Below, piece by piece: positions 21,210-64,000 of a DNA stretch of 64,000 nt. The DNA comes from Patagioenas fasciata (lineage: Eukaryota). The DNA lies in NCBI RefSeq assembly GCF_037038585.1, contig NC_092556.1:450619-514618 (forward strand), in the 5' to 3' direction. The notes below the pieces were generated by a model. That model had not been told where the DNA came from, ran no database searches, and worked only from the letters and a program-made list of their open reading frames with translations. The stretch's first letter is position 1; every line of letters starts with the position of its first letter. Position numbers and translations under genes: made by a program.

Positions 21210-26248
<5,039 letters not shown>

Positions 26249-26254
26249 GTGAGT

Positions 26255-39241: not shown

Positions 39242-39244
39242 GTG

Positions 39245-41290: not shown

Positions 41291-41313
41291 CCCGCTGTCC
41301 CCGCTGTCCCCAG

Positions 41314-41529: not shown

Positions 41530-41598
41530 CCCCATTGTCCCCATTGTCCCCATTGCCCCCATTGTCCCCAATGTCCCCTCTGTCCCCGCTGTCCCCAG

Positions 41599-41764: not shown

Positions 41765-41799
41765 GTGAGAGCGGGGGGGGGGGCATGGGGATGGGGGGG

Positions 41800-43325
41800 T
41801 CACATGGGGGGGGTCACATGACGGGGGGTGGTTATGGGGCTGGGGGGGGCAGATGGGGCTGAGGGGTGGGGGTCACATGGGGCTGGGGGGGTCACATGGG
41901 GCTGGGGGGCGTGGTTATGGGGCTGGCGGGTGGGGGTCCCATGGGGCTGGGGGGGTCACATGGGGCTGGGGGTGGGGTCCCATGGGGCTGGGGGGGTCCC
42001 ATGGGGCTGGGGGGGTTGTGGGGTGGGGGGCTATGGGGCTGGAAGGGGGTTGTGCGGGTAAGGGGGATCACATGGGGCTGGGGTGACCCCATCGCCCCCC
42101 ATTGCCCCCATTGCCCCCATTGCCCCATTGTCCCCATTGCCCCCATTGTCCCCATTGCCCCCATTGCCCCCATTGCCCCAAATGTCCCCATTGCCCCCAT
42201 TGCCCCCATTGTCCCCATTGCCCCCATTGCCCCCATTGCCCCATTGTCCCCATTGCCCCATTGCCCCATTGCCCCCATTGCCCCATTGCCCCCATTACCC
42301 CCATTGCCCCATTGCCCCCATTGCCCCCATTGCCCCCATTGCCCCATTGTCCCCATTGTCCCATTGCCCCCATTGCCCCCATTGCCCCATTGTCCCCATT
42401 GCCCCCATTGCCCCATTGCCCCCATTGCCCCCATTGCCCCATTGCCCCCATTGCCCCCCATTGCCCCATTGCCCCCATTGCCCCCATTGCCCCATTGTCC
42501 CCATTGCCCCATTGCCCCATTGCCCCCATTGCCCCATTGCCCCCATTACCCCCATTGCCCCATTGCCCCCATTGCCCCCATTGCCCCCATTGCCCCCATT
42601 GCCCCATTGCCCCCATTGCCCCATTGTCCCCATTGCCCCCAATGTCCCCATTGCCCCCATTGCCCCCATTGTCCCCATTGCCCCCATTGCCCCCATTGAC
42701 CCCCATTGCCCCCATTGCCCCCATTGCCCCCATCGCCCCCATTGTCCCCATTGCCCCCATTGCCCCCATTGACCCCCATTGCCCCCATCGCCCCCATTGT
42801 CCCCATTGCCCCCATTGCCCCCAATGCCCCATTGCCCCATTACCCCCATTACCCCCATTGCCCCATTGCCCCCATTGCCCCCATTGCCCCATTGCCCCCA
42901 TTGCCCCCATTACCCCCATTACCCCCAATGTCCCCATTGCCCCCATCGCCCCCATTGCCCCCATTGCCTCATTGCCCCCATTGTCCCCATTGTCCCCATT
43001 ACCCCCATTGCCCCATTGCCCCCATTGTCCCCATTGCCCCCATTGTCCCCATTGCCCCCATTGCCCCCATTGCCCCCATTACCCCCATTGCCCCCATTGC
43101 CCCCATTACCCCCATTGCCCCCATTGCCCCCATTGCCCCCATTACCCCCATTACCCCCATTGTCCCCAATGTCCCCATTACCCCCAATGCCCCCATTACC
43201 CCCACCGCCCCCATTACCCCCACCGCCCCCATTACCCCCAATGCCCCCATTACCCCCACCGCCCCCATTGCCCCCATTACCCCCATCCCCCCCATCCCCC
43301 CCATCCCCCCCATCCCCCCCATCGC
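41800..43325. repeat. GGGGCTGGGGGGGTCACATGG-type array, then a long (CCCCATTGCCC)n minisatellite
   Basis: Direct reading. It generates the spurious ORFs 42102..43643 and 42068..42964 (minus strand), among others. Confidence 0.9.
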
Positions 43326-43333
43326 CCCCACAG

Positions 43334-43605
43334 GGACCGCGACCCCCGCTCGTACTCGGTGCTGCTGGGCGCCCCGGAGCTGTCGGGCCCGCCGGGGGTG
43401 GGCGTGGCCATCCCGCTGGGGCGGGTCCTGCCCCACCCCTCGTACGCGGGCGAGGCCACCAGCGGGGACATCGCGCTGGCCCAGCTGGCCCGGCCCGTCC
43501 CCCTCTCGGCCGCGGTGCTGCCCGTCTGCCTGCCCGGGCCGCGCCTCCGCTTCCCGCCCGGCACCCCCTGCGTGGCCACCGGCTGGGGGGACATCGCCGA
43601 GGGAG
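43334..43605 (+). CDS. Serine protease exon 4: DRDPRSYSVLLGAPELSGPPGVGVAIPLGRVLPHPSYAGEATSGDIALAQLARPVPLSAAVLPVCLPGPRLRFPPGTPCVATGWGDIAEG, containing the catalytic Asp (DIAL)
   Basis: Matches the testisin region RYLGNSPYDIALVKLSAPV...CWVTGWGYIKEDE. Acceptor cccacag|GGACC. Donor GGGAG|gtcagg. Confidence 0.85.
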
Positions 43606-43619
43606 GTCAGGGGGACACG

Positions 43620-45800
43620 GGGGTGAGGGGGGCGTGGGGGTGATGGGGGTCATGGGGGCATTGGGGGTGATGGGGGTAATGGGGGCATTGAGGGTGATGG
43701 GGGCAATGGGGGTGGTAGGGACATTGGGGGTGATGGAGGTGATGGGGACATTGGGGACAATGGGGACAATGGGGACGTGGGGGGCAATGGGGGCAATGGG
43801 GACATTGGGGCAATGGGGGTAATGGGGGCAATGGGGGCAATGGGGACATTGGGGGTAATGGGGACAATGGGGACATGGGGGGCAATGGGGGCAATGGGGG
43901 TGATGGGGACATTGGGGGCAATGGGGACATTGAGGGTGATGGGGGCAATGGGGGTGGTAGGGACATTGGGGGCAATGGGGACATTGGGGGCAATGGGGAC
44001 AATGGGGACGATGGGGACATGGGGGACAATGGGGGCAATGGGGGCAATGGGGACATTGGGGGTGATGGGGGCAATGAGGACATGGGGGCAGTGGGGGCAT
44101 TGGGGGTGATGGGGACATTGGGGGCAATGGGGGCAATGGGGGCATTGGGGAAATTGGGGGTAATGGGGACATTGAGTGTAATGGGGGCAATGGGGGTGGT
44201 AGGGACATTGGGGGAAATGGAGGTGATGGGGACATTGGGGGTGATGGGGGCAATGGGGACATGGGGGGCAATGGGGACGATGGGGACGTGGGGGACAATG
44301 AGGACAATGGGGGCAATGGGGGCTATGGGGACATTGGGGACAATGGGGACATGGGGGACAATGGGGGCAATGGGGACAATGGGGGCAATGGGGACATTGG
44401 GGACGATGGGGACATGGGGGACAATGGGGACAATGGGGGCAATGGGGACATTGGGGACGATGGGGACATGGGGGACAATGGGGGCAATGGGGGCAATGGG
44501 GGCAATGGGGACATTGGGGACGATGGGGACATGGGGGACAATGGGGGCAATGGGGGCAATGGGGGCAATGGGGACATTGGGGACGATGGGGACATTGGGG
44601 GTGATGGGGAAATGGGCACCCAAGGGCACCCAACCATGGCCAAGGGCCCCCAATGGGGGTCAAGGGCACTCAGTGTGGGTCAAGGGCACCCAACGGGGAT
44701 CAAGGGCACCCAATGAGGATCAAGGGCACCCAGTGGGACTCAATGGGGATCAAGGGCACCCAAGGGCACCCAATGGGGATCAAGGGCACCCAACAGGGAT
44801 CAAGGGCACCCAACCATGACCAATGGCCCCCAATGGGGATCAAGGGCACCCAACCATGGTCAAGATGACCCAATGGGCGTCAAGGGCACCCAATCACACC
44901 CAAGGGGACCCAACGGGATCAAGGGCACTCAATGAGGATCAAGGGCACCCAGTGGGGGTCAATGGGGATCAAGGGCACCCAAGGGCACCCAATGGGGATC
45001 AAGGGCACCCAGTGGGGTCAAGGGCACCCAACCATAACCAACGGCCCCCAATGGGGATCAAGGCCACCCAAGGGCACCCAAAGGGGATCAAGGGCACCGA
45101 ACCATGACCAAGGGCCCCCAATGGGGATCAAGGCCACCCAAGGGCACCAACCATGACCAAGGGCCCCCAGTGGGACCCAACGGGGATCAAGGGCACCCAA
45201 GGGCCCCCAACCATGGTCAAGATGACCCAATGGGGGTCAAGGGCAACCAACCACACCCAAGGGGACCCAATGGGGATCAAGGGCACCCAAGGGCACCCAA
45301 TGGGACTCAATGGGGATCAAGGGCACCCAAGGGCACCCAATGGGGATCAGGGGCACTCAATGGGGATCAAGGGCACCCAACAGGGATCAAGGGCACCCAA
45401 CCATGACCAAGGGCCCCCAATGGGGATCAATGGCACTCAGTGGGGGTCAAGGGCACCCAGTGGGGGTCAAGGGCACCCAAGGGCACCCAATGGGGATCAA
45501 GGGCACTCAGTGGGGATCAAGGGCCCCCAATGGGGATCAAGGGCACCCAACCATGACCAAGGGCCCCCAATGGGGATCAAGGGCACCCAAGGGCACCAAC
45601 CATGACCAAGGGCACCCAATGGGGATCAAGGGCACCCAACCATGACCAAGGGCACCCAGTGGGGACCAAGGCCACCCAAGGGCACCAACCATGACCAAGG
45701 GCACCCAGTGGGGACCAAGGCCACCCAAGGGCACCAACCATGACCAAGGGCACCCAGTGGGACCCAATGGGGATCAAGGGCACCCGAGGGCCCCCAACGG
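43620..45800. repeat. (GGGGCAATGG / GGGGACATTGG)n, then a GGGATCAAGGGCACCCAAT-family minisatellite
   Basis: Direct reading. Confidence 0.9.
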
Positions 45801-45834
45801 GCTCCAGCGCGCCCCCCGCGCCCCTCCCCCGCAG

Positions 45835-46004
45835 AGGACCTCCCGTCGCCGCGGCGGCTGCAGCAGCTGGAGGTGCCGCTGTTGGCGCAGCAGACGTGCC
45901 AGCGCCTCTACCGCACCGACATGGGGCGCGCGCGGCCCCCGCGGCCCATCCAGCCCGACATGCTCTGCGCCGGCTACGCCGACGGCCGCAAGGACACCTG
46001 CAAG
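45835..46004 (+). CDS. Serine protease exon 5: (E)DLPSPRRLQQLEVPLLAQQTCQRLYRTDMGRARPPRPIQPDMLCAGYADGRKDTCK
   Basis: Matches testisin ALPSPHTLQEVQVAIINNSMCNHLF...DMVCAGNAQGGKDACF. Acceptor ccccgcag|. Donor TGCAAG|gtaccc. Confidence 0.85.
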
Positions 46005-46009
46005 GTACC

Positions 46010-49000
46010 CGGAGGTGTCACCGGGGGGGGTGGAACCACTGGGTGGGCACCAGAACCCCCTGAGATGTCACCATGGGGGGTGGAACCATTGGGTGGGCAC
46101 CAGAACCCCCTGGAGATGCCACCATAGGGGTCACCAACCCACCCTTGATCCCCAAGATGTCCTCAAGAACCACTGGGTGGGCACCAGAACCCCCTGGAGA
46201 TGTCACCATGGGGGGTGGAACCATTGGGTGGGCACCAGAACCCCCTGGAGATGCCACCATGGGTGTCCCCAACCCATCTTTGACCCCCAAAATGTCCTCA
46301 AGAACCACTTGGTGGGCACCAAAAGGTCCTTGAGGTGTCACCATGGGGGGATGGAACCATTTGGTGGGCACCAGAACCCCCTGGAGATGTCACCATGGGG
46401 GGTGGAACCATTGGGTGGGCACCAGAACCCACTTGAGATGCCACCATGGGGGGTGGAACCATTGGGTGGGCACCAGAACCCACTTGAGATGCCACCATGG
46501 GGGGTGGAACCATTGGGTGGGCACCAGAACCCCCTGGAGATGTCACCATGGGGGGTGGAACCATTGGGTGGGCACCAGAAGCCCCTGGAGATGTCACCAT
46601 GGGGGGTGGAACCATTGGGTGGGCACCAGAACCCCCTGGAGATGCCACCATGGGGGGTGGAACCATTGGGTGGGCACCAGAACCCCCTGGAGATGTCACC
46701 ATGGGGGGTGGAACCATTGGGTGGGCACCAGAACCCCTGGAGATGTCACCATGGGGGGTGGAACCATTGGGTGGGCACCAGAACCCCCTGGAGATGCCAC
46801 CATGGGGGGTGGAACCATTGGGTGGGCACCAGAACCCCCTGGAGATGTCACCATGGGGGGTGGAACCATTGGGTGGGCACCAGAACCCCCTGGAGATGCC
46901 ACCATGGGGGGTGGAACCACTGGGTGGGCACCAGAACCCCCTGGAGATGCCACCATGGGTGTCCCCAACCCATCCTTGACCCCCAATGGGGGTCAATGGG
47001 ACCCAACAGGGACTGGATGGGGTCAAGGGCACCCAATGGGATCCAACCGTGGCCAAGGGTACCCAATGGGGGTCAACGGCACCCAATGAGATCCAGCCGT
47101 GGACAAGGGTACCCAATGGGGATCAAGGGCACCCAATGGGGGTCAAGGGCACCCAATGAGATCCAACCATGGCCAAGGGCACCCAATGGGGGATCCAATG
47201 GGAGTCAAGGGCACCCAAGGGCACCCAACAGGGGTCAAGGGCATCCAATGGGGGTCAAGGGCACCCAATAGGACCCAACCATGGCCAAGGGCTCCCAATG
47301 AAGATCAAGGGCACCCAATGAAGATCAAGGGCACCCAATGGGGGTCAAGGGCACCCAATGGGGAACAAGGGCACCCAATGGGACCCAACCATGGCCAAGG
47401 GCTCCCAATGAAGATCAAGGGCACCCAATGGGGGTCAAGGGCACCCAATGGGGATCAAGGGCACCCAATGGGACCCAACCATGGCCAAGGGCTCCCAATG
47501 AAGATCAAGGGCACCCAATGGGGGTCAAGGGCACCCAATGAGGGTCAAGGGCACCCAACGGGACCCAACCATGTCCAAGGGCACCCAATGGGGGTCAATG
47601 GCACCCAATGGGGTCCAAGGGCACCCAACAGGACCCAACCATGGCCAAGGGCTCCCAATGAAGATCAAGGGCACCCAATAGGACCCAACCATGGCCAAGG
47701 GCACCCAATGGGGGTCAAGGACACCCAATGGGGTTCAAGGGCACCCAATGGGACCCAACCATGGCCAAGGGCACCCAATGAAGATCAAGGGCACCCAATG
47801 GGGGTCAAGGGCACCCAACGGGACCCAACCATGGCCAAGGGCTCCTAATGAAGATCAAGGGCACCCAATGGGGGTCATGGGCACCCAATGGGACCCAACC
47901 ATGGCCAAGGGCTCCCAATGAAGATCAAGGGCACCCAACGGGGGTCAAGGACACCCAATGGGACCCAACCATGGCCAAGGGCACCCAATGGGGGTCAATG
48001 GCACCCAATGGGGGTCAAGGACACCCAATGGGACCCAACCATGGCCAAGGGCACCCAATGAAGATCAAGGGCACCCAATGGGGGTCAAGGGCACCCAATG
48101 GGGATCAAGGACACCCAATGGGACCCAACCATGGCCAAGGGCTCCCAATGAAGATCAAGGGCACCCAATGGGGGTCAAGGGCACCCAATGGGGAACAAGG
48201 GCACCCAATAGGACCCAACCATGGCCAAGGGCACCCAATGAAGATCAAGGGCACCCAATGGGGGTCAAGGGCACCCAATGGGGAACAAGGGCACCCAATA
48301 GGACCCAACCATGGCCAAGGGCACCCAATGAAGATCAAGGGCACCCAATGAAGATCAAGGGCACCCAACGGGACCCAACCATGGCCAAGGGCACCCAATG
48401 GGGGTCAAGGGCACCCAACGGGACCCAACCATGGCCAAGGGCACCCAATGGGGGTCAAGGACACCCAATGGGGTTCAAGGGCACACAATGGGACCCAACC
48501 GTGGCCAAGGGCACCCAATGAAGATCAAGGGCACCCAATGGGGGTCAAGGGCACCCAACGGGACCCAACCATGGCCAAGGGCACCCAATGGGGGTCAAGG
48601 GCACCCAATGGGGGTCAAGGGCACCCAACAGGACCCAACCATGGCCAAGGGCTCCCAATGAAGATCAAGGGCACCCAATAGGACCCAACCATGGCCAAGG
48701 GCACCCAATGGGGGTCAAGGACACCCAATGGGGTTCAAGGGCACCCAATGGGACCCAACCATGGCCAAGGGCACCCAATGGGGGTCAAGGACACCCAATG
48801 GGGTTCAAGGGCACCCAATAGGACCCAACCATGGCCAAGGGTTCCCAATGAAGATCAAGGGCTCCCAATGGGGAACAAGGGCACCCAATGGGACCCAACC
48901 ATGGCCAAGGGCACCCAATGAAGATCAAGGGCACCCAATGGGGGTCAAGGGCACCCAATGGGGATCAAGGACACCCAACGGGACCCAACCATGGCCAAGG

Positions 49001-49620
49001 GCTCCCAATGAAGATCAAGGGCACCCAATGGGGGTCAAGGGCACCCAATGGGGATCAAGGACACCCAATGGGACCCAACCATGGCCAAGGGCTCCCAATG
49101 AAGATCAAGGGCACCCAATGGGGGTCAAGGGCACCCAATGGGGAACAAGGGCACCCAATAGGACCCAACCATGGCCAAGGGCACCCAATGAAGATCAAGG
49201 GCACCCAATGGGGGTCAAGGGCACCCAATGGGGAACAAGGGCACCCAATAGGACCCAACCATGTCCAAGGGCTCCCAATGAAGAACAAGGGCACCCAATA
49301 GGACCCAACCATGGCCAAGGGCACCCAATGGGGGTCAAGGGCACCCAATGGGGGTCAAGAACACCCAATGGAACCCAACCATGGCCAAGGGCACCCAATG
49401 AAGATCAAGGGCACCCAACGGGACCCAACCATGGCCAAGGGCTCCGAATGAAGATCAAGGGCACCCAATGGGGGTCATGGGCACCCAATGGGACCCAGCC
49501 ATGGCCAAGGGCTCCCAATGGGGATCAAGGGCACCCAACAGGACCCAACCGTGTCCAAGGGCACCCAATGGGGGACCCAACGTGGGTCAATGGCACCCAA
49601 GCTGCCCCCCCCATGTCCCC
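46010..49620. repeat. ~59-bp GGGGGTGGAACCATTGGGTGGGCACCAGAACCCCCTGGAGATGTCACCAT satellite, then a long GGGTCAAGGGCACCCAATGG(GACCCAACCATGGCCAAGG) satellite
   Basis: Direct reading. It generates dozens of the listed spurious ORFs. Confidence 0.9.
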
Positions 49621-49648
49621 CCCCTCGGTGACCCCACCCTCCCCCTAG

Positions 49649-50047
<399 letters not shown>

Positions 50048-51179: not shown

Positions 51180-54100
51180 TTTTTGGGGTTGTTGGGTTGG
51201 GGGGAATCTATGGGGCTGGGGGTCTATGGGGCTGGGGGTCTATGGGGCTGGGGGGCCTATGGGGCTGGGGGGATCTATGGGGCTGGGGGGCCTATGGGGG
51301 CTTCTATGGGGCTGGGGGGGTCTCTGGGGGTTTCTATGGGGCTGGGGGGATCTATGGGGGCTTCTATGGGGCTGGGGGGTCTATGGGGCTGGGGGGATTC
51401 TATGGGGCAGAGGAGGATTCTATGGGGCTGGGGGCGTCTATGGGGGCTTCTATGGGGCTGGGGGGTCTATGGGGCAGAGAAGGATTCTATGGGGCTGGGG
51501 GGGTCTATGGGGGTTTCTATGGGGCGGGGGGGTCTATGGGGGTTTCTATGGGGCTGGGGGGGATTCTATGGGGCTGGAGGGGACCTATGGGGCTGGGGGG
51601 TCTATGGGGGTTTCTATGGGGCTGGGGGGTCTATGGGGCAGAGGGGGATTCTATGGGGCTGGGGGTTTCTATGGGGCAGAGGGGGATTCTATGGGGCTGG
51701 GTGGTCTATGGGGGTTTCTATGGGGCTGGGGGAGATCTGTGGGGCTGAGGGGGATTCTATGGGGCTGGGGGGTCTCTGTGGGTTTCTATGGGGGTCAGAC
51801 CTATGGGGCAGGTGGGTGGGGCAGCGCTATGGGTCCGGCCGGGTCCCCGCCCCACACGTCCCCTCTGCCCCACAACCCCCCCCAGCCCCACGGCCGGAGC
51901 CTTCGCATCAACGAGGAGGAGGAGCCGCTTATGGGGCAGGACCCATAAGTGACCCCCAGACCCATAACTGACCCATAAGTGATTCCCAGACCCACATCTG
52001 CCCCCCAAGTGAACCCCAATGCCGAGGGACCCAGGCGTCCGGGCCCCACATCTGCCCCATAAGTGCCACCAAACCCCAGCGGACCCAGGCGTCCGGGCCC
52101 CACATCTGCCCCACACTTTGACTTTGGGGTCCAGTTTTATTGATGGTTGGGGGGCAATGGGGGGGTCTGTGGGTCACAGAGGAATCTATGGGTCACAGGG
52201 GGGAGATCTATGGGGCCCATCAAGGATCTATGGGTCACAGAGTAGATCTATGGGTCCCGGTGTGGTCTATGGGTCTGGGGGAGATCTATGGGGTGCAGGG
52301 CAAATCTGTGGGTCTGGGGGGATCTATGGGTCCCATAAGGAATCTATGGGGCCCAGGGCAAATCTATGGGGCCCAGGGTGAATCTGTGGGTCCCATAAAG
52401 AATCTATGGGTCTCAGGACAAGTCTATGGGTCCCAGAGCAAATCTGTGGGTCCCATAAGGAATCTGTGGGTCCCAGGACAAAACTATGGGTCACGGAGTA
52501 AATCTATGGTTCTCAGGACAAATCTATGGGGCCCATGGTGGGGATCTATGGGTCCCATAAAGAATCTATGGGTCCCAGGCCAAATCTATGGGTCCCAGAG
52601 AAAACCTATGGGTCCCATAAGGAATCTGTGGGTCACAGGACAGGTCTATGGGTCTCTATGGTCCCTATGGTCTCTATGGGTCCCTATGGGGCCCTATGGG
52701 TCTCTATGGGTCTCTATGGGTCTGTGTGGGTCTCTATGGGTCCCCATGGGTCTCTATGGGTCCTTATGGGTCTCTATGGGTCCCTATGGGTCTCTATGGT
52801 CTCTATGGGTCCCTATGGTCGCTATGGGTCTCTATGGGTCCCTATGGTCTCTATGGGTCCCTATGGGTCCCTATGGGTCCCTATGGGTTTCTATGGTCTC
52901 TATGGTCCCTATGGGTCTCTATGGTCTCTATGGGTCCCTATGGGTCCCTATGGGTCCCCATGGGGGTCTATGGGTCCTTATGGGTCTCTATGGGTCCGTG
53001 TGGGTCTCTATGGGTCTCTATGGTCTCTATGGTCTCTATGGGTCCCTATGGGTCCCTATGGGTCTCTATGGTCCCTATGGGTCTCTATGGGTCCGTGTGG
53101 GTCTCTATGGGTCTCTATGGTCCCTATGGTCTCTATGGGGCCCTATGGGTCTCTATGGGTCTCTATGGGTCTGTGTGGTCCCTATGGGTCTGTGTGGGTC
53201 TCTATGGGTCCCCATGGGTCTCTATGGGTCTGTGTGGTCTCTATGGGTCCCTATGGTCTCTATGGGTCCCTATGGGTCTCTATGGGTCTGTGTGGTCTCT
53301 ATGGGTCCCTATGGGTCTCTATGGGTCTCTATGGGTCCCTATGGGTCTCTATGGTCTCTATGGGTCTCTATGGTCTCTATGGGTCCCTATGGGTCCCTAT
53401 GGGTCTCTATGGGTCCCTATGGGTCTCTATGGGTCCGTGTGGGTCCCCATGGGGCGTCCGTGGGTCCGGGGTCCGTGGGTCCGATCTCAGCTGCGTCAGC
53501 GATTTTTTGGGGGCCAAAGCCCATAAGTTAGGGGGGGGGGAGGGGCAGCGGCTCCCGGGGCCTGCGGGGAGAATTTGGGGTGAAAAACGGGGGATTTGGG
53601 AAAAATGGGGTTGGGGGAAAATGGGGTTTTGGGGGGAAAAAAGGGGATTTTGGGGGTGAAAAATGGGGATTTTGGGGGACAAAAAATAGCGGGGGTTTTG
53701 GGGAAAATGGGGATTTTTGGGGGAAAAACGGGGGATTTTGGGTTAAAAATGGGGGTTTTTGGGGGTGAAAAATGGGGATTTTGGGGGGGGAATATTGGGG
53801 GTTTTTGGGGTGAAAAAAGGGGATTTTGGGGAAAAAATTGGGGTTTTGGGGGGGGAAATTTTGGGGTTTTTTGGGGTGAAAAATGGGGATTTTTGAGGGG
53901 AAAATTGGGGTTTTTTGGGGGAGAAAAATTGGGATTTTTGAGGGGGAAATATTGGGGGTTTTTTTGGGGTGAAAAAATGGGGATTTGGGGAAAAAAATGG
54001 GGGTTTTGAGGGGAAAAATTTTGGGACTTTTTTGGGTGAAAAAAGGGGATTTTTGAGGGAAAAATTGGGGTTTTTTTGGGGTGAAAAAAGGGGGTTTTGG

Positions 54101-54650
54101 GGTGGAAAACGGGGATTTTTGGGGTGAAAAAAGGGATTTTTGGGGTGAAAAAAGGGGATTTTCGGGTCAAAAATGGAGATTTTTGGGGTGAAAAATGGTT
54201 TTTTGGGGGTTGAAAATCGGGATTTTTGGGGTGAAAAAGGGCGATTTTGGGGTGGAAAATGGGGACATTTGGGGTGAAAAAGGGGGATTTTGGGATCAAA
54301 AAGGCGATTTTTGGGGTGAAAAAAGGGGTTTTTGGGGCGGAAAATGGGGATTTTTGGTGTGAAAATGGGGATTTTTGGCATAAAAAGGGGATTTTGGGGT
54401 CAAAAATGGGGATTTTTGGGGTGGAAAATGGGGATTTTTGGTGTGAAAATGGGGATTTTTGGCATAAAAAGGGGATTTTGAGGTCAAAAATGGGGATTTT
54501 TGGGGTGAAAAAGGGCGATTTTGGGGTGGAAAATGGGGATTTTGGGGTGAAAAAGGGGATTTGGGGGTGAAAACGTGGATTTTGGGGGTGAAAAGGGGGT
54601 TTTGGGGTGAAAAAGGGGATTTTTGGGGTGAAAAAGGGGATTTTTGGGGC
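51180..54650. repeat. Series of minisatellites: CTATGGGGCTGGGGGG (51180-51800), GGGTCTCTATGGGTCCCTATGG (52140-53460), GGGGTGAAAAATGGGGATTTTTGG (53550-54650)
   Basis: Direct reading. A small unique island at 51830-52140 separates the arrays. Confidence 0.9.
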
Positions 54651-54654
54651 AGAC

Positions 54655-54695
54655 CCACATGTTCTCGTAGTTGGCGGCGTCTTCGCTGTCGCTGC
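54655..54695 (-). CDS. LAT: LAT C-terminal exon carrying the YENM motif: (G)SDSEDAANYENMW...; 3' end unresolved because the ORF runs on into satellite
   Basis: Minus-strand acceptor cccccccag|GCAGCGAC. Matches human LAT EEEGAPDYENLQELN (Grb2 YxN site). The phase is compatible with the EYVNV exon. Confidence 0.55.
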
Positions 54696-54832
54696 CTGGG
54701 GGGGAAGGGAGAATTTTGGGGTGAAAAAGGGGGATTTTGGGAAAAAAGAAGAGGATTTGGGGGTGAAAAGGGGGAATTTTGGGGGGGAATGGGGGATTTT
54801 TGGGGTGAAAAAGGGGGATTTTGGGCACTCAC

Positions 54833-54874
54833 CGTGGTGGGGGGAGGGGACGTTGACGTATTCCTGGCTGCCCC
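54833..54874 (-). CDS. LAT: LAT exon: (G)GSQEYVNVPSPHH
   Basis: Minus-strand acceptor ccccag|GGGGCAGCC and donor CCACG|gtgagt. Matches human LAT GSREYVNVSQE, the canonical Grb2-SH2 pYVNV site. Confidence 0.65.
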
Positions 54875-54899
54875 CTGGGGGATGGGAGGATGTGGGGCG

Positions 54900-56520
54900 G
54901 TTATGGGGCACAGTGTGGGGCTATGGGGCTGCTTATGTGGGGCAGGATGTGGGGCTATGGGGCTGGGTATGGGGCACAATGTGGGGCTATGGGGCAGAGT
55001 TATGGGGCAGAATGGGGGGGTCTATGGGGCAGAATGGGGGGGTCTATGGGGTAGAGTTATGGGGCAGAATGGGGGGTCTATGGGGCAGGTTATGGGGCAG
55101 AATGGGGGGGTCTATGGGGCAGAATGGGGGGGTCTATGGGGCAGGTTATGGGGCAGAATGGGGGGTCTATGGTGCAGGTTATGGGGCAGAATTGTGGGGT
55201 CTGTGGGGCAGAGTTATGGGGCAGAATGGGGGGTCTATGGGGCAGGTTATGGGGCAGAATTGTGGGGTCTGTGGGGCAGAGTTATGGGGCAGAATGGGGG
55301 TCTATGGGGCTTCTTATGGGGCAGGTTGTGGGGCAGGTTATGGGGCAGAATGAGGGTCTATGCGGCAGGTTCTGGGGCTGGTTATGGGGCGGGATGTGGG
55401 GTGGGATATGGTGCTGGTTATGGGGCAGGTTGTGGGTCTACGGGGCTGGTTATGGGGCAGGATGTGGGGTGGGATATAGGGCAGGTTATGAGGCTGCTTA
55501 TGGGTCTGGTTATGGGGCAGAATGAGGGTCTATGGGGCAGGATCTGGGGCTGGTTATGGGGCAGGATGTGGGGCTATGGGGCTGGCTATGGGGTTGGTTA
55601 CGGGACTGGTTATGGGGCTGGATGTGGGGTGGGATATGGGGCTGGTTATGGGGTAGGTTGTGGGTCTATGGGGCAGGTTATGGGGCAGGATGTGGGGCAG
55701 GTTATGGGGCGGGATGGGGGTCTATGGGGCGGGTTATGGGGCTGGTTATGGGGCACATTATGGGGCACAATGTTGGTGTATGGGGCTAGTTATGGGGCAG
55801 GATGCGGGTCCATGGGGCAGGTTCTGAGGCAGGATGTGGGGCAGGTTATGGGGCAGTATATGGGGCAGGTTATGGGGTGGGATGTGGGTCGATGGGGCAG
55901 GTTATGGGGGGATCTATGGGGCTGGTTATGGGGCAGAATGGGGCTCTATGGGGCTGGTTCTGGGGCAGGTTGTGGGTCTATGGGGCAGGATATGGGGCAG
56001 GTTATAGGGCTGGTTATGGGGCAGAATGTGGGGCAGGTTATGGGGGCAGGATGTGGGTCTATGGGGCAGGTTATGGGGCAGGATGTGGGTCTATGGGGCT
56101 GGTTATGGGGCAGGATGTGGGGTGGGATGTGAGTCTATGGGGTTGGTTATGGGGCAGGTTATGGGGCAGGATGCGGGTCTACGGGGCTGGTTATGGGGCT
56201 GGTTATGGGGCGGGATGTGGGTCTATGGGGCTGGTTATGGGGCTGGTTATGGGGCGGGATGTGGGTCTATGGGGCTGGTTATGGGGCTGGTTATGGGGCG
56301 GGATGTGGGTCTATGGGGTTGGTTATGGGGCTGGTTATGGGGCAGGACGCGACTCTATGGGGCAGGTTACAGGGCTGGTTATGGGGTGGGATGTGGATCT
56401 ATGGGGCAGATCCATGGGGCAGATCCGTGGGTCTATGGGTCAGATCCATGGGGCAGATCCGTGGGTCTATGGGGCAGATCCATGGGGCAGATCCGTGGGT
56501 CTATGGGGCAGATCCATGGG
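54900..56520. repeat. GGTTATGGGGCAGGATGTGG-family minisatellite
   Basis: Direct reading. Confidence 0.9.
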
Positions 56521-56539
56521 GCAGATCCGTGGGTCTCAC

Positions 56540-56590
56540 CCAATGAGCTCCCGGTGCCTTTGGGGACGTTGACGTAATCGTCACCTTGAG
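56540..56590 (-). CDS. LAT: LAT exon: QGDDYVNVPKGTGSSL
   Basis: Minus-strand acceptor ttcccag|CTCAAGG and donor CATTGG|gtgaga. Identical to the human LAT motif IDDYVNVPES. Its phase-1 end joins the EYVNV exon as GGG. Confidence 0.7.
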
Positions 56591-56720
56591 CTGGGAATTA
56601 ACGGCAATTAACGGTAATTAACGGGTAATTAACGGTAATTAACGGGTAATTAACGGTAATTAAGGGGTAATTAACGGTAATTAACGGGTAATTAGCGGGT
56701 AATTAACGGTAATTAAGGGT
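56590..56720. repeat. (TAATTAACGG(G))n, about 12 units, AT-rich microsatellite directly abutting the LAT DDYVNVP exon acceptor
   Basis: attaacggcaattaacggtaattaacgggtaattaacgg... Confidence 0.9.
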
Positions 56721-56799
56721 AATTAAGGGGACCATGGGTCCCGTTGTCACCCACCCGAGGACTCGCTGTCCCCACCCGGGGGGGTCCCGTTTGTCACCT

Positions 56800-58960
56800 C
56801 CTGGTCGGGCAGAACGTGCCTGGGGACAATGGGGGGCAATGGGACACAATGGGGACAATGGGGGCAATGGGGACAATGGGACACAATGGGGACAATGGGG
56901 ACAATGGGGACAATGGGGGAATGGGGACAATGGGGACAATGGGGACAATGGGGACATTGGGGACAATGGGAGTCAATGGGAGTCAATGGGGTCAATGGGG
57001 GTGAATGGGGGTCAATGGGGGTCAATGGGAATCAATGGGGGTCAATGGGGTCAATGGGGTCAATGGGGTCAATGGGGACAATGGGGACAATGGGACAATG
57101 GGGACATTGGGGAAAATGGGGACAATGGGGACAATGAGGACAATGGGAGTCAATGGGGGTCAATGGGGATCAATGAGGGTCAATGGGGTTCAATGGGAGT
57201 AAATGGGGGTCAATGGGGGGCAATGGGGGCAATGGGGACAATGGGACACAATGGGGACAATGGGGACAATGGGGGCAATGGGGGCAATGGGGACAATGGG
57301 GGCAATGGGGACAATGAGGACAATGGGAGTCAATGGGGGTCAATGGGGATCAATGGGGGTCAATGGGGATCAATGGGAGTCAATGGGGGTCAATGGGGGT
57401 CAATGGGGGTCAATGGGGGTCAATGGGGTCAATGGGGTCAATGGGGACATTTGGTGACGTCACGCACACGTAGCCCATGTAGGTGACGTCATCGTCATCG
57501 GGGTCCGGGGGGACGGGGGGACCTGTGGGGACAATGGGGACAATGGGTCAATGGGGACAATGGGGTCGATGGGGGTCAATGGGAGTCAATGGAGATCAAT
57601 GGGGGTCAATGGGAGTCAATGGGGTCAATGGGGGTCTACGGGGGTCAATGGGGACAATGGGGACAATGGGGGTCAATGGGGTCTATGGGGTCAATGGGGG
57701 TCTATGGGGGGCAATGGGAGTCAATGGGGATCAATGGGGATCAATGGGGGTCAATGGGGGTCTACGGGGGTCTATGGGGGTCAATGGGGGTCAATGGGGT
57801 CAATGGGGGGCAATGGGGTCAATGGGGGTCAATGGGTCAATGGGGGGCAATGGGGTCAATGGGTCAATGGGGGGTCAATGGGGTCAATGGGAGTCAAAGG
57901 GGGGCAATGGGGATCAATGGGGTCTTTGGGGGTCTACGGGGGTCAATGGGGACAATGGGGATCAATGGGGGTCAATGGGGGTCTACGGGGGTCAATGGGG
58001 TCAATGGGGGTCAATGGGGGTCTATGGGGGTCAATGGGGGTCAATGGGGTCAATGGGGGGTCAATGGGTCAATGGGGGTCAGTGGGGTCAATGGGGTCAA
58101 TGGGGTCATGGGGTCAATGGGGGTCAATGGGGGTCAATGGGGTCAATGGGGGTCAACGGGGTCAATGGGAGTCAATAGGGATCAATGGGGGTCAATGGGG
58201 ATCAATGGGGGGTCAATGGGAGTCAATGGGGGTCAATGGGGGTCAATGGGGATCAATGGGGACACTTGGGGGTCAATGGGGGTCAATGGGGTCAATGGGA
58301 GTCAATGGGGGGCAATGGGTCAATGGGGGTCAATGGGTCAATGGGTCAATGGGGGTCAATGGGGGTCAATGGGGACAATGGGGGTCAATGGGGGGCAATG
58401 GGGATCAATGGGGTCTTTGGGGGTCTACAGGGGTCAATGGGGGTCAATGGGGGTCAATGGGTCAGTGGGGATCAATGGGGTCAATGGGGGTCAATGGGGG
58501 TCAATGGGGTCAATGGGATCAATGGGGTCAATGGGGTCAATGGGGGTCAATGGGGTCTTTGGGGGTCTACGGGGGTCAATGGGGGTCTATGGGGGTCAAT
58601 GGGTCAATGGGGGTCAATGGGGTCAATGGGGGTCAATGGGGGTCAATGGGGGTCAATGGGTCAATGGGGGTCAATGGGGGTCAATGGGGATCAATGGGGT
58701 CAATGGGGTCAATGGGGGTCAATGGGGGTCAATGGGTCAATGGGGGTCAATGGGGGTCAATGGGGGTCTATGGGGGTCAATGGGTCAATGGGTCAATGGG
58801 TCAATGGGGGTCAATGGGGGTCAATGGGGATCAATGGGGTCAATGGGGTCAATGGGGGTCAATGGGGGTCAATGGGTCAATGGGTCAATGGGTCAATGGG
58901 GGTCAATGGGGTCAATGGGGGTCTATGGGGGTCAATGGGTCAATGGGGTCCATGGGGACA
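56800..58960. repeat. (GGGGTCAATGG)n ~11-bp minisatellite
   Basis: Direct reading. It generates the spurious ORFs 57551..59815 and 57589..58992. Confidence 0.9.
57449..57522 (-). CDS. LAT: Candidate LAT exon: PPVPPDPDDDDVTYMGYVCVTSPN (homolog of the human EDEDDYHNPGYLVVLPDS PLCgamma-binding region); 3' boundary uncertain
   Basis: Minus-strand acceptor ccccacag|GTCCCC. Shares the DD-Y-x3-GY(V/L)xV pattern. The donor is weak (AAAT|gtcccc). Confidence 0.4.
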
Positions 58961-58982
58961 AGGGGTCCCCATTGTCACTCAC

Positions 58983-59186
58983 CGTTCGTTGACCCCCGGT
59001 GGCTCTGGGGGGGTTGGGGGGACCTGGGGGCCCATTGGGGACACTGGGGACATTGCCCCCCCGGCTCCGCCCCCATTGGCCCCAGGGGCCCCATTGTTGT
59101 CCCCACTGTCCCCGTTGTCCCCAGGGGCGCCCGCGGCGTCGGGTCCCTCGGCGCTTCCCACGGGTGGGGGAGGGGCTGGGGGGGAC
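58983..59186 (-). CDS. LAT: Candidate LAT Pro/acidic-rich exon: (R)SPPAPPPPVGSAEGPDAAGAPGDNGDSGDNNGAPGANGGGAGGAMSPVSPMGPQVPPTPPEPPGVNER
   Basis: Acceptor cccacag|GTCCCCC and donor AACGAACG|gtgagtgac. Its phase joins the PRIQF exon (AG+G). The composition resembles the human LAT proline-rich then acidic stretch. Confidence 0.4.
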
Positions 59187-59199
59187 CTGTGGGGGAGGG

Positions 59200-59790
59200 G
59201 ACACGCGGGGGTCACGGGGGACACTGGGGGTCAATGGGGACATTGGGGTCAGTGGGGACTTTGGGGACATTGGGGTCACTTGGGGGTCATTGGGGACATT
59301 GGGGACACTTGGGGGTCAATGGGGACATTGGGGGTCAATGGGGACACTGGGGGGTCATGGGGGACATTGGGGGACATTGGGGACATTGGGGACACTTGGG
59401 GGTCATGGGGGACATTGGGGGTCAATGGGGACTTTGGGGACATTGGGGACACTTGGGGGTCAATGGGGACATTGGGGGTCAATGGGGACACTGGGGGTCA
59501 ATGGGGACACTTGGGGGTCAATGGGGACACTGGGGGTCAATGGGGACACTTGGGGGTCAATGGGGACACTGGGGACACTTGGGGGTCAATGGGGACACTG
59601 GGGGGTCAGTGGGGACATTGGGGGTCAATGGGGACATTGGGGACACTTGGGGGTCAATGGGGACATTGGGGGTCAATGGGGACACTTGGGGGTCACTGGG
59701 GTCCTTTGGGGGTCACTTATGGGTCGCGGGGTCACTTGGGGGTCACTGGGGGGTCACTTGGGGGTCACTTGGGGGTCACTTGGGGGTCAC
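59200..59790. repeat. GGGGGTCAATGGGGACATTGG-family minisatellite
   Basis: Direct reading. Confidence 0.9.
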
Positions 59791-59794
59791 TGAC

Positions 59795-59838
59795 CTCTGC
59801 AAGGGGTCACGATGACAAAACTGGATCCGGGGGGCGGC
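59795..59838 (-). CDS. LAT: LAT exon: AAPRIQFCHRDPLQ(R)
   Basis: Acceptor cccccccag|GCCGCC and donor GCAGAG|gtcagt. Matches human LAT LYPRGIQFKRPHTV. Confidence 0.5.
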
Positions 59839-59999
59839 CTGGGGGGGGCGGGGGGGAGGGGCCAGTTGGGGGTCAGGCCCCTCCCCCCCAGCCCCATAGA
59901 AGGGACCCAGGAGTCCGGGAGGGACCCAGGAGTCCGGGACCCACAAGTGCTGCCCCCCTCCCCCCCACTCACTTGTCAGCGGCGTCCAATGGGGGGAGG

Positions 60000-62140
60000 G
60001 GACCTGTGGGGAGACCCATAAGTGACCCACAAGTGACCCAGGGAGACCCCCACCCAGCCCCACAAGTGCCCCATAGCGACCCCCGAGTGCCCCATAGCGA
60101 CCCCCAAGTGCCCCATAGTGACCCCCAAGTGCCCCATAGCGACCCCCAAGTGCCCCATAGCGAACCCCCAGGAGCCCCAGAGCGCCCCCCAAGTGCCCCA
60201 TAGTGACCCCCAAGTGCCCCATAGCGACCCCCCAAGTGCCCCATAGTGCCCCCCAAGTGCCCCATAGCGACCTCTAACTGCCCCCTAAGTGCCACCCCAG
60301 CCCCATAAGTGCCCCAGAGCGCCCCCCAAGTGCCCCATAGTGCCCCCCAAGTGCCCCCCATAGCGACCCCCAAGTGCCCCCCAGCCCCATAAGTGCCCCA
60401 TATTGACCCCTCTTAGTGCCCCCCAAGTGCCCCATAGTGACCCCCAAGTGCCCCATAGCGACCCCCAAGTGCCCCCATAGTTTCCTCCCCAGCCCCCCAA
60501 ATGCCCCATAGCGCCCCCTAAGTGCCCCCCAGTGCCACCCCAGCCCCATAAGTGCCCCAGAGCGCCCCCCAAGTGGCCCCATAGTGACCCCCAAGTGCCC
60601 CATAGTGCCCCCCAAGTGCCCCATAGCGACCTCCCAAGTGCCCCATAGCGATCCCCAAGTGCCCCATAGCGAACCCCCAGGTGCCCCATAGCGACCCCCA
60701 AGTGGCCCCCAAGTGCCCCCCAAGTGCCCCCCATAGCGACCCCCAAGTGCCCCCCAGCCCCATAAGTGCCCCATATTGACCCCTCTTAGTGCCCCCCAAG
60801 TGCCCCATAGTGACCCCCAAGTGCCCCATAGCGACCCCCAAGTGCCCCCCATAGTTTCCTCCCCAGCCCCCCAAATGCCCCATAGCGCCCCCTAAGTGCC
60901 CCCCAGTGCCACCCCAGCCCCATAAGTGCCCCAGAGCGCCCCCCAAGTGGCCCCATAGTGACCCCCAAGTGCCCCATAGTGCCCCCCAAGTGCCCCATAG
61001 CGATCCCCAAGTGCCCCATAGCGAACCCCCAGGTGCCCCATAGCGACCCCCAAGTGGCCCCCAAGTGCCCCCCATGTGCCCCCCATAGCACCCCCCAAGT
61101 GCCCCCCAGCCCCATAAGTGCCCCATATTGACCCCTCTTAGTGCCCCCCAAGTGCCCCATAGTGACCCCCAAGTGCCCCATAGCGACCCCCAAGTGCCCC
61201 CATAGTTTCCTCCCCAGCCCCCCAAATGCCCCATAGCGCCCCCTAAGTGCCCCCCAGTGCCACCCCAGCCCCATAAGTGCCCCAGAGCGCCCCCCAAGTG
61301 GCCCATAGTGACCCCCAAGTGCCCCATAGCGACCCCCAAAGTGCCCCATGGTGACCTCCCAACTGCCCCATAGCGACCCCCAAAGTGCCCCATAGTGCCC
61401 CACAAGTGCCCCATAGCGACCTCCCAAGTGCCCCACAGCGACCCCCCAAGTGCCTCCCATGTGCCCCCCATAGCGACCCCCAAGTGCCCCCATAGTTTCC
61501 TCCTCAGCCCCCCAAGTGCCCCATAGCGCCCCATAAGTGCCCCCTAAGTGCCGCCCCAACCCCATAAGTGCCCCATAGCGACCCCCAAAGTGCCCCATGG
61601 TGCCCCACAAGTGCCCCATAGCGACCTCCCAAGTGCCCCACAGCGACCCCCCAAGTGCCCCATAGCGACCCCCAAGTGCCCCCCAAGTACCCCCCATGTG
61701 CCCCCATAGCACCCCCAAGTGCCCCCCAGCCCCATAAGTGCCCCATATTGACCCCTCTTAGTGCCCCCCAAGTGCCCCACAGCGACCCCCGAAGCGCCCC
61801 ATAGCGCCCCCCAAGTGCCCCATAGCGCCCCCTAAGTGCCCCCCAGTGCCACCCCAGCCCCGTAAGTGCCCCAGAGCGCCCCCCAAGTGCCCCATAGTGA
61901 CCACCAAGTGCCCCATAGTGCCCCCCAAATGCCCCACAGCGACCTCTAACTGCCCCCTAAGTGCCACCCCAGCCCCATAAGTGCCCCATAGTGCCCCCCA
62001 AGTGCCCCATAGTGCCCCCCAAGTGCCCCATAGCGACCTCTAACTGCCCCCTAAGTGCCACCCCAGCCCCATAAGTGCCCCAGAGTGCCCCCCAAGTGCC
62101 CCATAGTGACCCCCAAGTGCCCCCCAAGTGCCCCATAGCG
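60000..62140. repeat. CCCCAAGTGCCCCATAGCGACC-family minisatellite
   Basis: Direct reading. It generates many spurious minus-strand ORFs (60274..60852, 60518..61534, 60786..61718). Confidence 0.9.
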
Positions 62141-62153
62141 CCCCCCAACTCAC

Positions 62154-62250
62154 GGCGGCGGCACCGGGTGCAGAGGCCGAGCAGCAACAGGAGGGTGGGG
62201 GGCAGCAGGATCAGGCCCCACAACCCGCTATGGGGCCCGGGACCCTCCAT
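62154..62250 (-). CDS. LAT: LAT exon 1: MEGPGPHSGLWGLILLPPTLLLLLGLCTRCRR(R), with a short ectodomain, a TM helix and a juxtamembrane CxxC palmitoylation motif
   Basis: Minus-strand ATG at 62250-62248 with Kozak cccagccccATGG, and donor CGCCGCC|gtgagt. The architecture matches human LAT MEEAILVPCVLGLLLLPILAMLMALCVHCHRLPG. Confidence 0.65.
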
Positions 62251-62399
62251 GGGGCTGGGGGGAGGGCGTCAGCCGTGGGGCCCGGACGCCTGGGTCCCCC
62301 CCTCATCCCGCCCCACGGGATCCCATTGGGGGCGTTGGGGGGGTCTGACCCATAAGTTGGGGGGCCCAGAAGTACAGTGGTTCCTGCCCCATAAGTTGG

Positions 62400-63840
62400 G
62401 GGTCTGGGAAGCCCATAACTGAGGGACCCAGGCGTCCGGGCCCCACATCTCCCCCCCAAATGCCACCTAAGGGAGGGACCCAGGCGTCCGGGCCCCACAT
62501 CTCCCCCCCAAATGCCACCTGAAGCAGGGACCCAGGCGTCCGGGCCCCACATCTCCCCCCCAAATGCCACCTGAAGCAGGGACCCAGGCGTCCGGGCCCC
62601 ACATCTCCCCCCCAAATGTCACCTAAGGAAGGGACCCAGGCGTCCGGGAGGGACCCAGGCGTCCGGGCCCCACATCTCCCCCCACCCAAATGCCACCTAA
62701 GGGAGGGACCCAGGCGTCCGGGCCCCACATCTCCCCCCCAAATGCCCCCTAAGGGAGGGACCCAGGCGTCCGGGCCCCACATCTCCCCCCCAGATGCCAC
62801 CTGAAGCAGGGACCCAGGTGTCCGGGAGGGACCCAGGCGTCCGGGCCCCACATCTCCCCCCCCAAATGCCCCCTAAGGGAGGGACCCAGGCGTCCGGGCC
62901 CCACATCTCCCCCCCCAAATGCCACCTAAGGGAGGGACCCAGGCGTTCGGGCCCCACATCTCCCCCCCAAATGCCACCTAAGGGAGGGACCCAGGCGTCC
63001 GGGCCCCACATCTCCCCCCCCAAATGCCCCCTAAGGGAGGGACCCAGGCGTCCGGGCCCCACATCTCCCCCCCCAAATGCCCCCTAAGGGAGGGACCCAG
63101 GCGTCCGGGCCCCACATCTCCCCCCCCAAATGTCACCTAAGGGAGGGACCCAGGCGTCCGGGAGGGACCCAGGCATCCGGGCCCCACATCTCCCCCCCAA
63201 ATGCCCCCTAAGGGAGGGACCCAGGCGTCCGGGCCCCCCATCTCCCCCCCCAAATGCCCCCTAAGGGAGGGACCCAGGTGTCCGGGCCCCACATCTCCCC
63301 CCCCAAATGCCCCCTAAGGGAGGGACCCAGGCGTCCGGGCCCCACATCTCCCCCCCAAATGCCCCCTAAGGGAGGGACCCAGGCGTCCGGGCCCCACATC
63401 TCCCCCCCAGATGTCACCTAAGGGAGGGACCCAGGCGTCTGGGCCCCACATCTCCCCCCCAAATGCCCCCTAAGGGAGGGACCCAGGCGTCCGGGCCCCA
63501 CATCTCCCCCCCAAATGTCACCTAAGGGAGGGACCCAGGCGTCCGGGCCCCACATCTCCCCCCCCAAATGCCACCTAAGGGAGGGACCCAGGCGTCCGGG
63601 CCCCACATCTCCCCCCCCAAATGTCACCTAAGGGAGGGACCCAGGCGTCCGGGCCCCACATCTCTCCCCCAAATGCCCCCTAAGGGAGGGACCCAGGCGT
63701 CCGGGCCCCACATCTCCCCCCCAAATGCCCCCTAAGGGAGGGACCCAGGCGTCCGGGCCCCACATCTCCCCCCCCAAATGCCCCCTAAGGGAGGGACCCA
63801 GGCGTCCGGGAGGGACCCAGGCGTCCGGGCCCCACATCTC
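62400..63840. repeat. 60-bp satellite GGGACCCAGGCGTCCGGGCCCCACATCTCCCCCCCAAATGCCCCCTAAGGGA, about 24 units
   Basis: Direct reading. It shares the GGGACCCAGGCGTCCGGG core with the arrays at 1925-3950, 6520-6610, 37990-39060, 39245-40020 and 52020-52100. Confidence 0.95.
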
Positions 63841-64000
63841 CCCCATCCCCCGCTACCTCCTCCCGGCGCCGCCACCTCCGGGTCCCCGAGCGCACGTGGG
63901 GGGAGGGGCCACCCCCCCTCCCCTCCCCCACCCCCAGGAAGCTGCGGGCGCCGTGGGGCAGGAAACGTGTGGGGCAGGAAATGTGTGGGGCAGGAAACGT

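Follow-up and report, generated by a model that had tools for sequence, protein, structure and literature searches.

The adaptor LAT was formerly thought to be absent from Neognathae, until it was found in ten bird species, none of them Columbiformes, where it had been missed through its GC-richness (Janusova et al. 2023, PLoS One, PMC10079008). According to that study, avian LAT keeps the cysteines, the tyrosines and G131, and is expressed in chicken lymphoid organs. A second described system concerns the dot-chromosome genes of the chicken, in which intron stuttering leaves every intron with a repeat particular to it, expanded locally and delimited by the exons on either side, and exon fragments are sometimes copied as well; LAT is listed there among the "hidden" genes (PMC12954441, Genome Biol Evol 2026). 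Here we analyzed 64,000 nucleotides (nt) of the band-tailed pigeon, Patagioenas fasciata (contig NC_092556.1, positions 450,619 to 514,618 of the forward strand; hereafter the window, from whose first letter all positions are counted). A preliminary description had recognized in it a LAT ortholog embedded in satellites, with a gap in the exon phases. We conclude, with a probability of about 0.93, that the locus is an ordinary, intact and apparently functional pigeon LAT gene with repeat-filled introns, and that the phase gap is a misread frame. The gene had been identified correctly; the structural puzzle built around it was incorrect.

When the minus strand of positions 54000-64000 was read and the islands were translated, all six peptide islands of the preliminary description were observed on that strand, at the coordinates and in the order claimed for them:

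Island 1, 62250-62154, minus strand: translation MEGPGPHSGLWGLILLPPTLLLLLGLCTRCRR
Island 2, frame 0 of 59838-59795, minus strand: translation in the PRIQF frame, AAPRIQFCHRDPLQ
Island 3, 57522-57449, minus strand: acidic, translation PPVPPDPDDDDVTYMGYVCV
Island 4, 56590-56540, minus strand: translation QGDDYVNVPKGTGSSL
Island 5, 54874-54833, minus strand: translation GSQEYVNVPSPHH
Island 6, 54695-54655, minus strand: translation SDSEDAANYENMW

Exons were searched as AG...GT-bounded segments within the non-repeat islands, and the sequence was used unedited. Ten exons, joined from 62250 to 53528 on the minus strand, gave a 660-nt open reading frame (ORF) of 219 amino acids (aa). In a search of 5.8 billion proteins, its translation was 100% identical over 219 aa to RefSeq XP_071657466.1, which carries the name "uncharacterized protein [Patagioenas fasciata]". 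All introns are GT-AG, and the phases run 0>1>2>1>1>2>1>1>1>2>0 within this one ORF, which leaves no gap to be filled. Three of the coding exons (59186-58983, 56819-56755 and 53561-53528) were missing from the preliminary description; the terminal exon and the end of exon 9 were located by means of the RefSeq C-terminus (...NYENM-PREPLPLPPP). The exons are as follows:

Exon 1, 62250-62154, minus strand: 97 nt, phase 0 to 1; MEGPGPHSG, then the transmembrane helix LWGLILLPPTLLLLLGL and C27-TR-C30-RR; donor GTGAGT
Exon 2, 60003-59973, minus strand: 31-nt mini-exon, phase 1 to 2; (R)PLPPLDAAD(K)
Exon 3, 59838-59795, minus strand: 44 nt, phase 2 to 1; (K)PPPGSSFVIVTPCR; donor GTCAGT
Exon 4 in its RefSeq form, 59186-58983, minus strand: 204 nt, phase 1 to 1; its ends, GPPQPLPHP... 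and ...SPQPPQSHRGSTNG, align with other LATs
Exon 5, 57522-57468, minus strand: 55 nt, phase 1 to 2; PPVPPDPDDDDVTYMGYV, including G142-Y143 of the PLC-gamma1-type site; donor GTGCGT
Exon 6, 56819-56755, minus strand: 65 nt, phase 2 to 1; HVLPDQEVTNGTPPGGDSESS; completes GYVHVLPD
Exon 7, 56590-56540, minus strand: 51 nt; AQGDDY171VNVPKGTGSSL, with a Grb2/Gads-type YxN site
Exon 8, 54874-54833, minus strand: 42 nt; GGSQEY188VNVPSPHH, with a YxN site
Exon 9, 54695-54659, minus strand: 37 nt, phase 1 to 2; GSDSEDAANY206EN(M); GTGGGT donor from 54658
Exon 10, terminal coding exon, 53561-53528, minus strand: (M)PREPLPLPPP; TAA stop at 53530-53528; acceptor ccccgcag

The 31-nt segment at 60003-59973, previously said not to fix the phase, carries phase 1 to 2 and links exon 1 to exon 3. 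The YENM exon, for which no convincing donor had been recognized, ends at 54659 (..AACAT|GTGGGT) and joins the terminal exon at 53561-53528 in the model. The acidic island at 57449-57522 does hold an exon, but its outline overran into intron 5 by 19 nt; the true donor is GT|GTGCGT after 57468. These difficulties with the phase, the 31-nt exon and the donor arose because PRIQF was taken as the frame of exon 3, or because the GTGGGT donor was overlooked. The coding sequence has a GC content of 0.705 (0.83 at third codon positions, GC3), as reported for avian LAT (PMC10079008).

The satellite setting was also confirmed, with Tandem Repeats Finder reporting long tandem arrays between all six islands. 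From ATG to stop, 8,723 nt in all, the share of these arrays is 0.90, and in each of the six introns longer than 600 nt it is 0.97-1.00. The repeat units differ among most introns, the exceptions being introns 4 and 5, which share one family, and introns 8 and 9, which share another. The arrays, for which no strand is assigned, are these:

60057-62148, intron 1: 21/43-nt unit, about 98 copies, 97% of the intron
59197-59792, intron 3: 20/29/39-nt units, beginning at the donor itself
56822-58957, introns 4 and 5: 10-nt unit GGGGTCAATG, about 224 copies, bracketing exon 5
54893-56536, intron 7: 12/34/44/88-nt units
53611-54825, introns 9 and 8: 21-nt unit of the TTGGGGTGAAAAATGGGGATTT type, with exon 9 in between

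The LAT "satellites" are therefore its introns, with an architecture as in intron stuttering. As in the chicken genes, the pigeon introns each hold a local, exon-bounded repeat, the gene is GC-rich and belongs to the "hidden gene" class, and the neighboring protease gene (described below) has tandem partial exon copies. The likeness concerns a pigeon, whereas stuttering was described in chicken, and it lies in the repeat content, length polymorphism of introns between individuals being one of the three defining features of stuttering. Within LAT, the sole possible sign of exon copying into introns is a 23-nt satellite motif common to exon 4 and intron 3.

The predicted protein is a type III transmembrane adaptor of 219 aa (or 173 aa, see below) with a 9-residue ectodomain and one transmembrane helix. 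The strongest 19-aa hydropathy window covers residues 9-27 (GLWGLILLPPTLLLLLGLC, mean Kyte-Doolittle value 2.05), and the scan detected no second hydrophobic segment in the 219-aa protein. The helix is followed by a juxtamembrane C27xxC30 and a proline-rich, disordered tail with SSFxVxxP and SPQPPQ motifs, then by G142-Y143-VHVLPD and three distal YxN sites. The first of these tyrosine motifs is a site of the PLC-gamma1 type with glycine at -1 (human Y132, of the YLVV type; feature definition from PMC10079008), and the distal sites Y171VNV, Y188VNV and Y206ENM are of the Grb2/Gads type (human Y171, Y191 and Y226). In a 12-species alignment, Y171, N173, E187, Y188, N190, Y206, E207 and N208 were invariant; C27, C30, G142, Y143 and the SPQ positions of SPQPPQ were at least 90% conserved; and V146, P148 and D149 of VLPD were either invariant or at least 90% conserved. 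The ratio of nonsynonymous to synonymous substitution rates (dN/dS) between the pigeon and a parrot cDNA was about 0.48 (156 codons). Run SRR21676447 includes a 1,024-nt Logan contig that bears a parrot-type LAT with an uninterrupted 164-aa ORF, whereas in the Guaruba assembly the same gene, introns included, takes up about 6 kb; thus, real RNA shows the orthologous parrot exons spliced together in the frame adopted here.

These observations bear on the possibility that the locus is a decaying LAT pseudogene overrun by satellites, its motifs being relics. Such decay would fit a gene span that is about 90% tandem repeat, the satellite-like sequence inside exon 4 and a RefSeq product called merely "uncharacterized protein". 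It would not fit an ORF that stays open across ten exons with canonical splice sites throughout, the retention of all functionally defined residues, or the dN/dS of about 0.48, and no further LAT-like locus was seen. Moreover, introns filled with repeats are usual among those chicken dot-chromosome genes that are expressed (PMC12954441), and the chicken LAT gene is itself expressed (PMC10079008). We consider decay very improbable.

The assignment to LAT is supported by Pfam, where the LAT family (PF15234) matched at 36.3 bits (E = 6.8e-9), above its gathering cut-off of 27 bits; the chicken LAT verified by reverse transcription PCR scored 35.0 bits and the tortoise protein 77.3 bits. A first, word-indexed homolog search returned two clusters only, and an exhaustive profile search was required to reach other LATs. 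This search, run in HMMER with a pigeon-plus-parrot profile, found 28 proteins. The matches looked up included proteins named LAT in duck, chicken and great tit (third-party annotations, TPA) and in rhea, emu, kiwi, cuckoo, tortoise, newts and vole, together with a crane "hypothetical protein". A sequence search of the PDB with LAT gave no meaningful match, as expected for a disordered protein.

The protein might instead be a different palmitoylated YxN adaptor, LAT2/NTAL or LAX1, since a transmembrane helix, a CxxC and several YxN sites are common to these adaptors and a weak match to Pfam LAX (11.6-12.7 bits) was present. That match lies far under the 27-bit cut-off of the LAX family, hmmscan reported no LAT2 match at E<=1, and the LAT family scored over its gathering threshold. 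The pigeon protein has a GYVxVLPD site of the PLC-gamma1 type, which LAT2 presumably lacks. Every named relative is a LAT, and in crane the gene has SPNS1 as its neighbor. With the LAT profile above its cut-off, relatives named LAT and the signaling motifs kept, identification as a LAT ortholog, as originally proposed, holds, and we give the other adaptors hardly any weight.

The phase problem can be traced to exon 3. In its real frame this exon reads KPPPGSSFVIVTPCR, the conserved vertebrate xSSFxVxxP motif, and PRIQF belongs to the -1 frame, in which TCC-AGT-TTT is read one base early as ATC-CAG-TTT. It had been stated that the PRIQF exon needs phase 0, but PRIQF lies outside the translated frame and exon 3 is entered in phase 2. 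Exon 4 measures 204 nt, a multiple of three, and therefore passes phase 1 on to exon 5, as exon 5 requires. The pigeon GSSFVIVTP aligns with TSSFMVITPSR in duck, PSSFIVMGPR in cuckoo, HNSFMLLTRPR in rhea, PNSFMVLTRAN in tortoise, HSSFTVLRSS in newt and PSSIFIKPT in vole; the equivalent in parrot LATs is KPRPPGTFVVLAPQR. In genomic DNA, exon 2 is delimited as cag|GT...AA|gtgagt in both chicken (31 nt) and parrot (28 nt), with the phases seen in pigeon, and exon 3 runs from phase 2 to phase 1 in both species, the donor GTCAGT being common to chicken and pigeon. The six frames of the window contain 467 five-residue matches to human LAT, compared with about 245 in shuffles. A lone 5-mer such as PRIQF is weak evidence, because chance five-residue matches are common in proline- and GC-rich DNA; the weight lies in the ordered set of motifs and in the open frame, not in single 5-mers. 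PRIQF is an out-of-frame coincidence; once exon 3 is shifted by one base into its proper frame, the phase gap disappears.

A variant in which PRIQF is the true frame and a single base is in error in a C-run was dropped, the unedited sequence being a complete ORF that matches RefSeq and the orthologs. The wider proposal, that homopolymer indels in the assembly conceal an exon 3 reading ...AAPRIQFCHRDPLQ... with another exon missing or mis-called, can appeal to the similarity of PRIQF to human PRGIQF and to the C-runs that flank exon 3, where long-read assemblies often err, but it demands two errors that compensate each other (ahead of exon 3 and ahead of the phase-1 exon 5) where the sequence as it stands demands none, the in-frame GSSFVIVTPCR fits the conserved motif of 10 other species, non-human mammals have SSIFIKP-type sequence in place of PRGIQF, the exon phases are identical in chicken and parrot, and chance five-residue matches to human LAT are frequent in this DNA, so that its probability is negligible.

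Within the intact gene, exon 4 is the part whose extent is least settled. Its middle 46 aa (WEAPRDPTPRAPLGTT...CPQWAPR) are pigeon-specific, align with nothing and are missing from the parrot cDNA; the LAT genes of parrot, crane and tortoise are interrupted by an intron at this very point. The corresponding pigeon segment is:

59161-59024, minus strand: candidate in-frame intron in exon 4, 138 nt; donor CC|GTGGGA, acceptor cccccag|G; its excision gives ...PHP|SPQPPQ...

The introns of crane and parrot are of phase 2; their donor reads CC|GTGGGT and their acceptor cag|C TCC CCC CAG CCC CCC CAG AGC. The pigeon counterparts, in the same phase, are CC|GTGGGA at 59161 and cccccag|G TCC CCC CAA CCC CCC CAG AGC at 59024/59023. 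In length the segment resembles introns 2, 6 and 8, and it shares its 23-nt stretch with the intron-3 satellite. Other in-frame GT..AG pairs in exon 4 (63, 81, 102 and 159 nt) were rejected as too short or off the conserved intron position. From this comparison we slightly favor splicing of the 138-nt segment out of the main mRNA, which would give eleven coding exons and 173 aa, with the segment retained in the RefSeq model; both forms are in frame. It is less likely than not that a substantial share of transcripts retains the open, satellite-bearing segment. If it did, this would be a natural exonisation of a "stuttering" intron into the disordered, proline-rich region of a key immune adaptor, adding 46 lineage-specific residues and recreating a PRSPQP like the mammalian Lck-SH3 site. 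In the retained form, the ancestral acceptor AG is read within an arginine codon to give APRSPQP (residues ~110-116), which resembles the mammalian Lck-SH3-binding PIPRSP. A motif of the PIPRSP type was reported to be lacking in chicken LAT (PMC10079008).

Several points weigh against regarding this as an ordinary, functional LAT. Identity to other birds is just 41-50%, and the pigeon protein is without the DDYxNE tyrosine of other species, which we take to correspond to human Y127, and without the YENE exon. Neither AATAAA nor ATTAAA was found within 600 nt of the stop. The splicing proposed for pigeon draws on the RefSeq computational model and on comparative evidence, and the middle of exon 4, unconserved and satellite-like, is probably intronic, in which case the main isoform may be other than the 219-aa product. 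Finally, palmitoylation, phosphorylation by ZAP-70, binding of partners and lymphoid expression are argued by analogy. By that analogy with human, mouse and chicken LAT, C27 and C30 would be palmitoylated, and upon triggering of the T-cell receptor ZAP-70 would phosphorylate the LAT tyrosines. Phosphorylated Y143 would then recruit PLC-gamma1, the preceding glycine possibly slowing phosphorylation of this residue as a kinetic-proofreading step, and phosphorylated Y171, Y188 and Y206 would recruit Grb2 and Gads-SLP-76.

Compared with the LATs already described in birds (chicken DBA07029.1, duck DBA07032.1, great tit DBA07035.1), the pigeon gene shows the same Pfam family, is connected to them by the profile search and has a similarly GC-rich coding sequence. 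It likewise encodes the transmembrane helix with its CxxC, the glycine before the PLC-gamma1 tyrosine and the three distal YxN sites. With chicken it has in common the 31-nt exon 2 and the phases of exon 3, and with chicken and duck the short proline-rich C-terminal tail after YEN. In contrast to other birds, its first distal site is YVNV, as in mammals, instead of YENV, the DDYxNE tyrosine is lacking, and the RefSeq model has the 46-aa lineage-specific insert in the proline-rich region. The architecture and the four signaling tyrosines of human and mouse LAT (human Y132, Y171, Y191 and Y226, with G131) are also present, at about 38% identity in the case of vole LAT; unlike in human and mouse, the pigeon introns are packed with tandem repeats. 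The loss of the YENE exon is common to pigeon and other neognaths. In the 12-species alignment, the 9-aa mini-exon DSVPSYENE (human Y110 region) was present in rhea, tortoise and newt LAT and absent from all six neognath sequences, pigeon included. Pigeon intron 4, where this exon would be expected, is 98% satellite.

Three neighboring genes were located in the window, in the order SRRM2 (+), ELOB (-), PRSS (+), LAT (-); the window extends 1.75 kb beyond the LAT ATG on its upstream side:

41598-49786, plus strand: PRSS, trypsin-family serine protease, convergent with LAT; tblastn exons 41634-41765, 43359-43607, 45849-46016 and 49649-49786
35873-33537, minus strand: ELOB (elongin B), three exons 69-89% identical to human ELOB; Pfam ubiquitin 32 bits
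13304-26252, plus strand: SRRM2, N-terminal exons 13304-13375, 13493-13582, 15008-15070, 15192-15296 and 16546-16584; Pfam cwf21 60 bits

The SRRM2 end given is that of an open exon of 2,055 aa at 20085-26252. The exons of SRRM2 and ELOB are likewise separated by tandem arrays, so the repeat-filled architecture is regional and not special to LAT; counted by k-mers, repeats make up a fraction of 0.48 of the entire window.

PRSS matched Pfam Trypsin at 220 bits over the full profile, and its C-terminal exon is 91% identical among pigeon, parrot and crane, where the gene adjoins LAT in each case. A "PRSS cluster" had been reported next to LAT; a trypsin-family gene does adjoin it, but only this single PRSS gene was found in the window. 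SPNS1 and LAT are adjacent in human and in kiwi (PMC10079008). The crane order is SPNS1 (+), LAT (+), trypsin (-), with an upstream-gene peptide identical at 30/33 positions to human SPNS1 (9boi_A), better than to SPNS2; the upstream neighbor of the crane ortholog is thus that of human LAT at 16p11.2. In the parrot Guaruba guarouba (CM098568.1) the order is QPRT, ELOB (-), LAT (+), trypsin (-), so that, with ELOB as the reference, the convergent genes LAT and PRSS are inverted as a pair in comparison with pigeon, and the far side of ELOB is occupied by QPRT in parrot and by SRRM2 in pigeon. As the same trypsin gene lies tail-to-tail with LAT in pigeon, parrot and crane, the two are convergent neighbors in three orders of Neoaves. 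In the tortoise, the only outgroup compared for synteny, neither trypsin nor ELOB was seen within 10 kb of LAT.

We take human SRRM2, ELOB and PRSS33 to lie together at 16p13.3 and human QPRT at 16p11.2. Avian LAT, in Neoaves, would accordingly sit at the junction of two blocks that both correspond to human 16p, SPNS1-LAT being 16p11.2-like and PRSS-ELOB-SRRM2 16p13.3-like. The 3' neighbors also differ from those of human and mouse LAT, including a PRSS gene in pigeon, crane and parrot, followed in pigeon by ELOB and SRRM2. The linkage to PRSS, ELOB and SRRM2, presented before as unexpected, is real, but its strangeness was overstated: the arrangement is conserved in Neoaves, and the LAT-PRSS linkage is avian synteny rather than an anomaly.

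The chicken scaffold MU179265.1 (10001-33825) carries XP_040512786.1, a 132-aa protein named "E3 ubiquitin-protein ligase Hakai-like", which clusters at 90% with chicken LAT DBA07029.1 and is therefore a misnamed partial LAT. On the same scaffold, intron 1 measures about 4.7 kb and LAT exons recur (23570 and 33130; 23778 and 33336), which suggests duplication, stuttering or an assembly artefact.

LAT in neognath birds has been known since its publication in 2023, the pigeon gene is in RefSeq without a name, and the intron architecture has been described in chicken; beyond annotation hygiene, the present result has little importance. It provides a pigeon LAT that is complete at the genomic level, the whole exon-intron structure included, allows XP_071657466.1 to be named as LAT, and flags a probable retained intron in that RefSeq model as well as the misnamed "Hakai-like" fragment of chicken LAT. 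Repeat-filled introns of the chicken dot-chromosome type occur in a pigeon too, and the order SPNS1-LAT-PRSS(-ELOB-SRRM2) can serve as an anchor of synteny for that avian microchromosome which corresponds to human 16p.

Upstream of LAT, and elsewhere in the window, a dispersed 18-nt motif was observed:

62422-63829, no strand assigned: satellite upstream of LAT, 52/53-nt unit carrying the motif GGGACCCAGGCGTCCGGG
1942-3889, 6524-6601, 28785-29000, 38023-40018, 52026-52097, 59902-59938, 62281-62298 and 62423-63829, both strands: copies of GGGACCCAGGCGTCCGGG from the motif count

With up to 2 mismatches, 96 copies are present in the window against 0.08 expected, mostly in intergenic arrays; the motif was not found at the parrot, crane, tortoise and chicken loci. 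Between ELOB and PRSS the arrays stand head-to-head (38023-39007, plus; 39248-40018, minus), and one inverted copy lies 31 nt upstream of the LAT ATG. In PRSS, the 5' part of the first catalytic exon occurs in three tandem copies starting at 41313, 41442 and 41598 (41313-41684, plus strand), the last alone continuing into the remaining exon sequence. These copies look like the "exon stuttering" of chicken dot-chromosome genes (PMC12954441).

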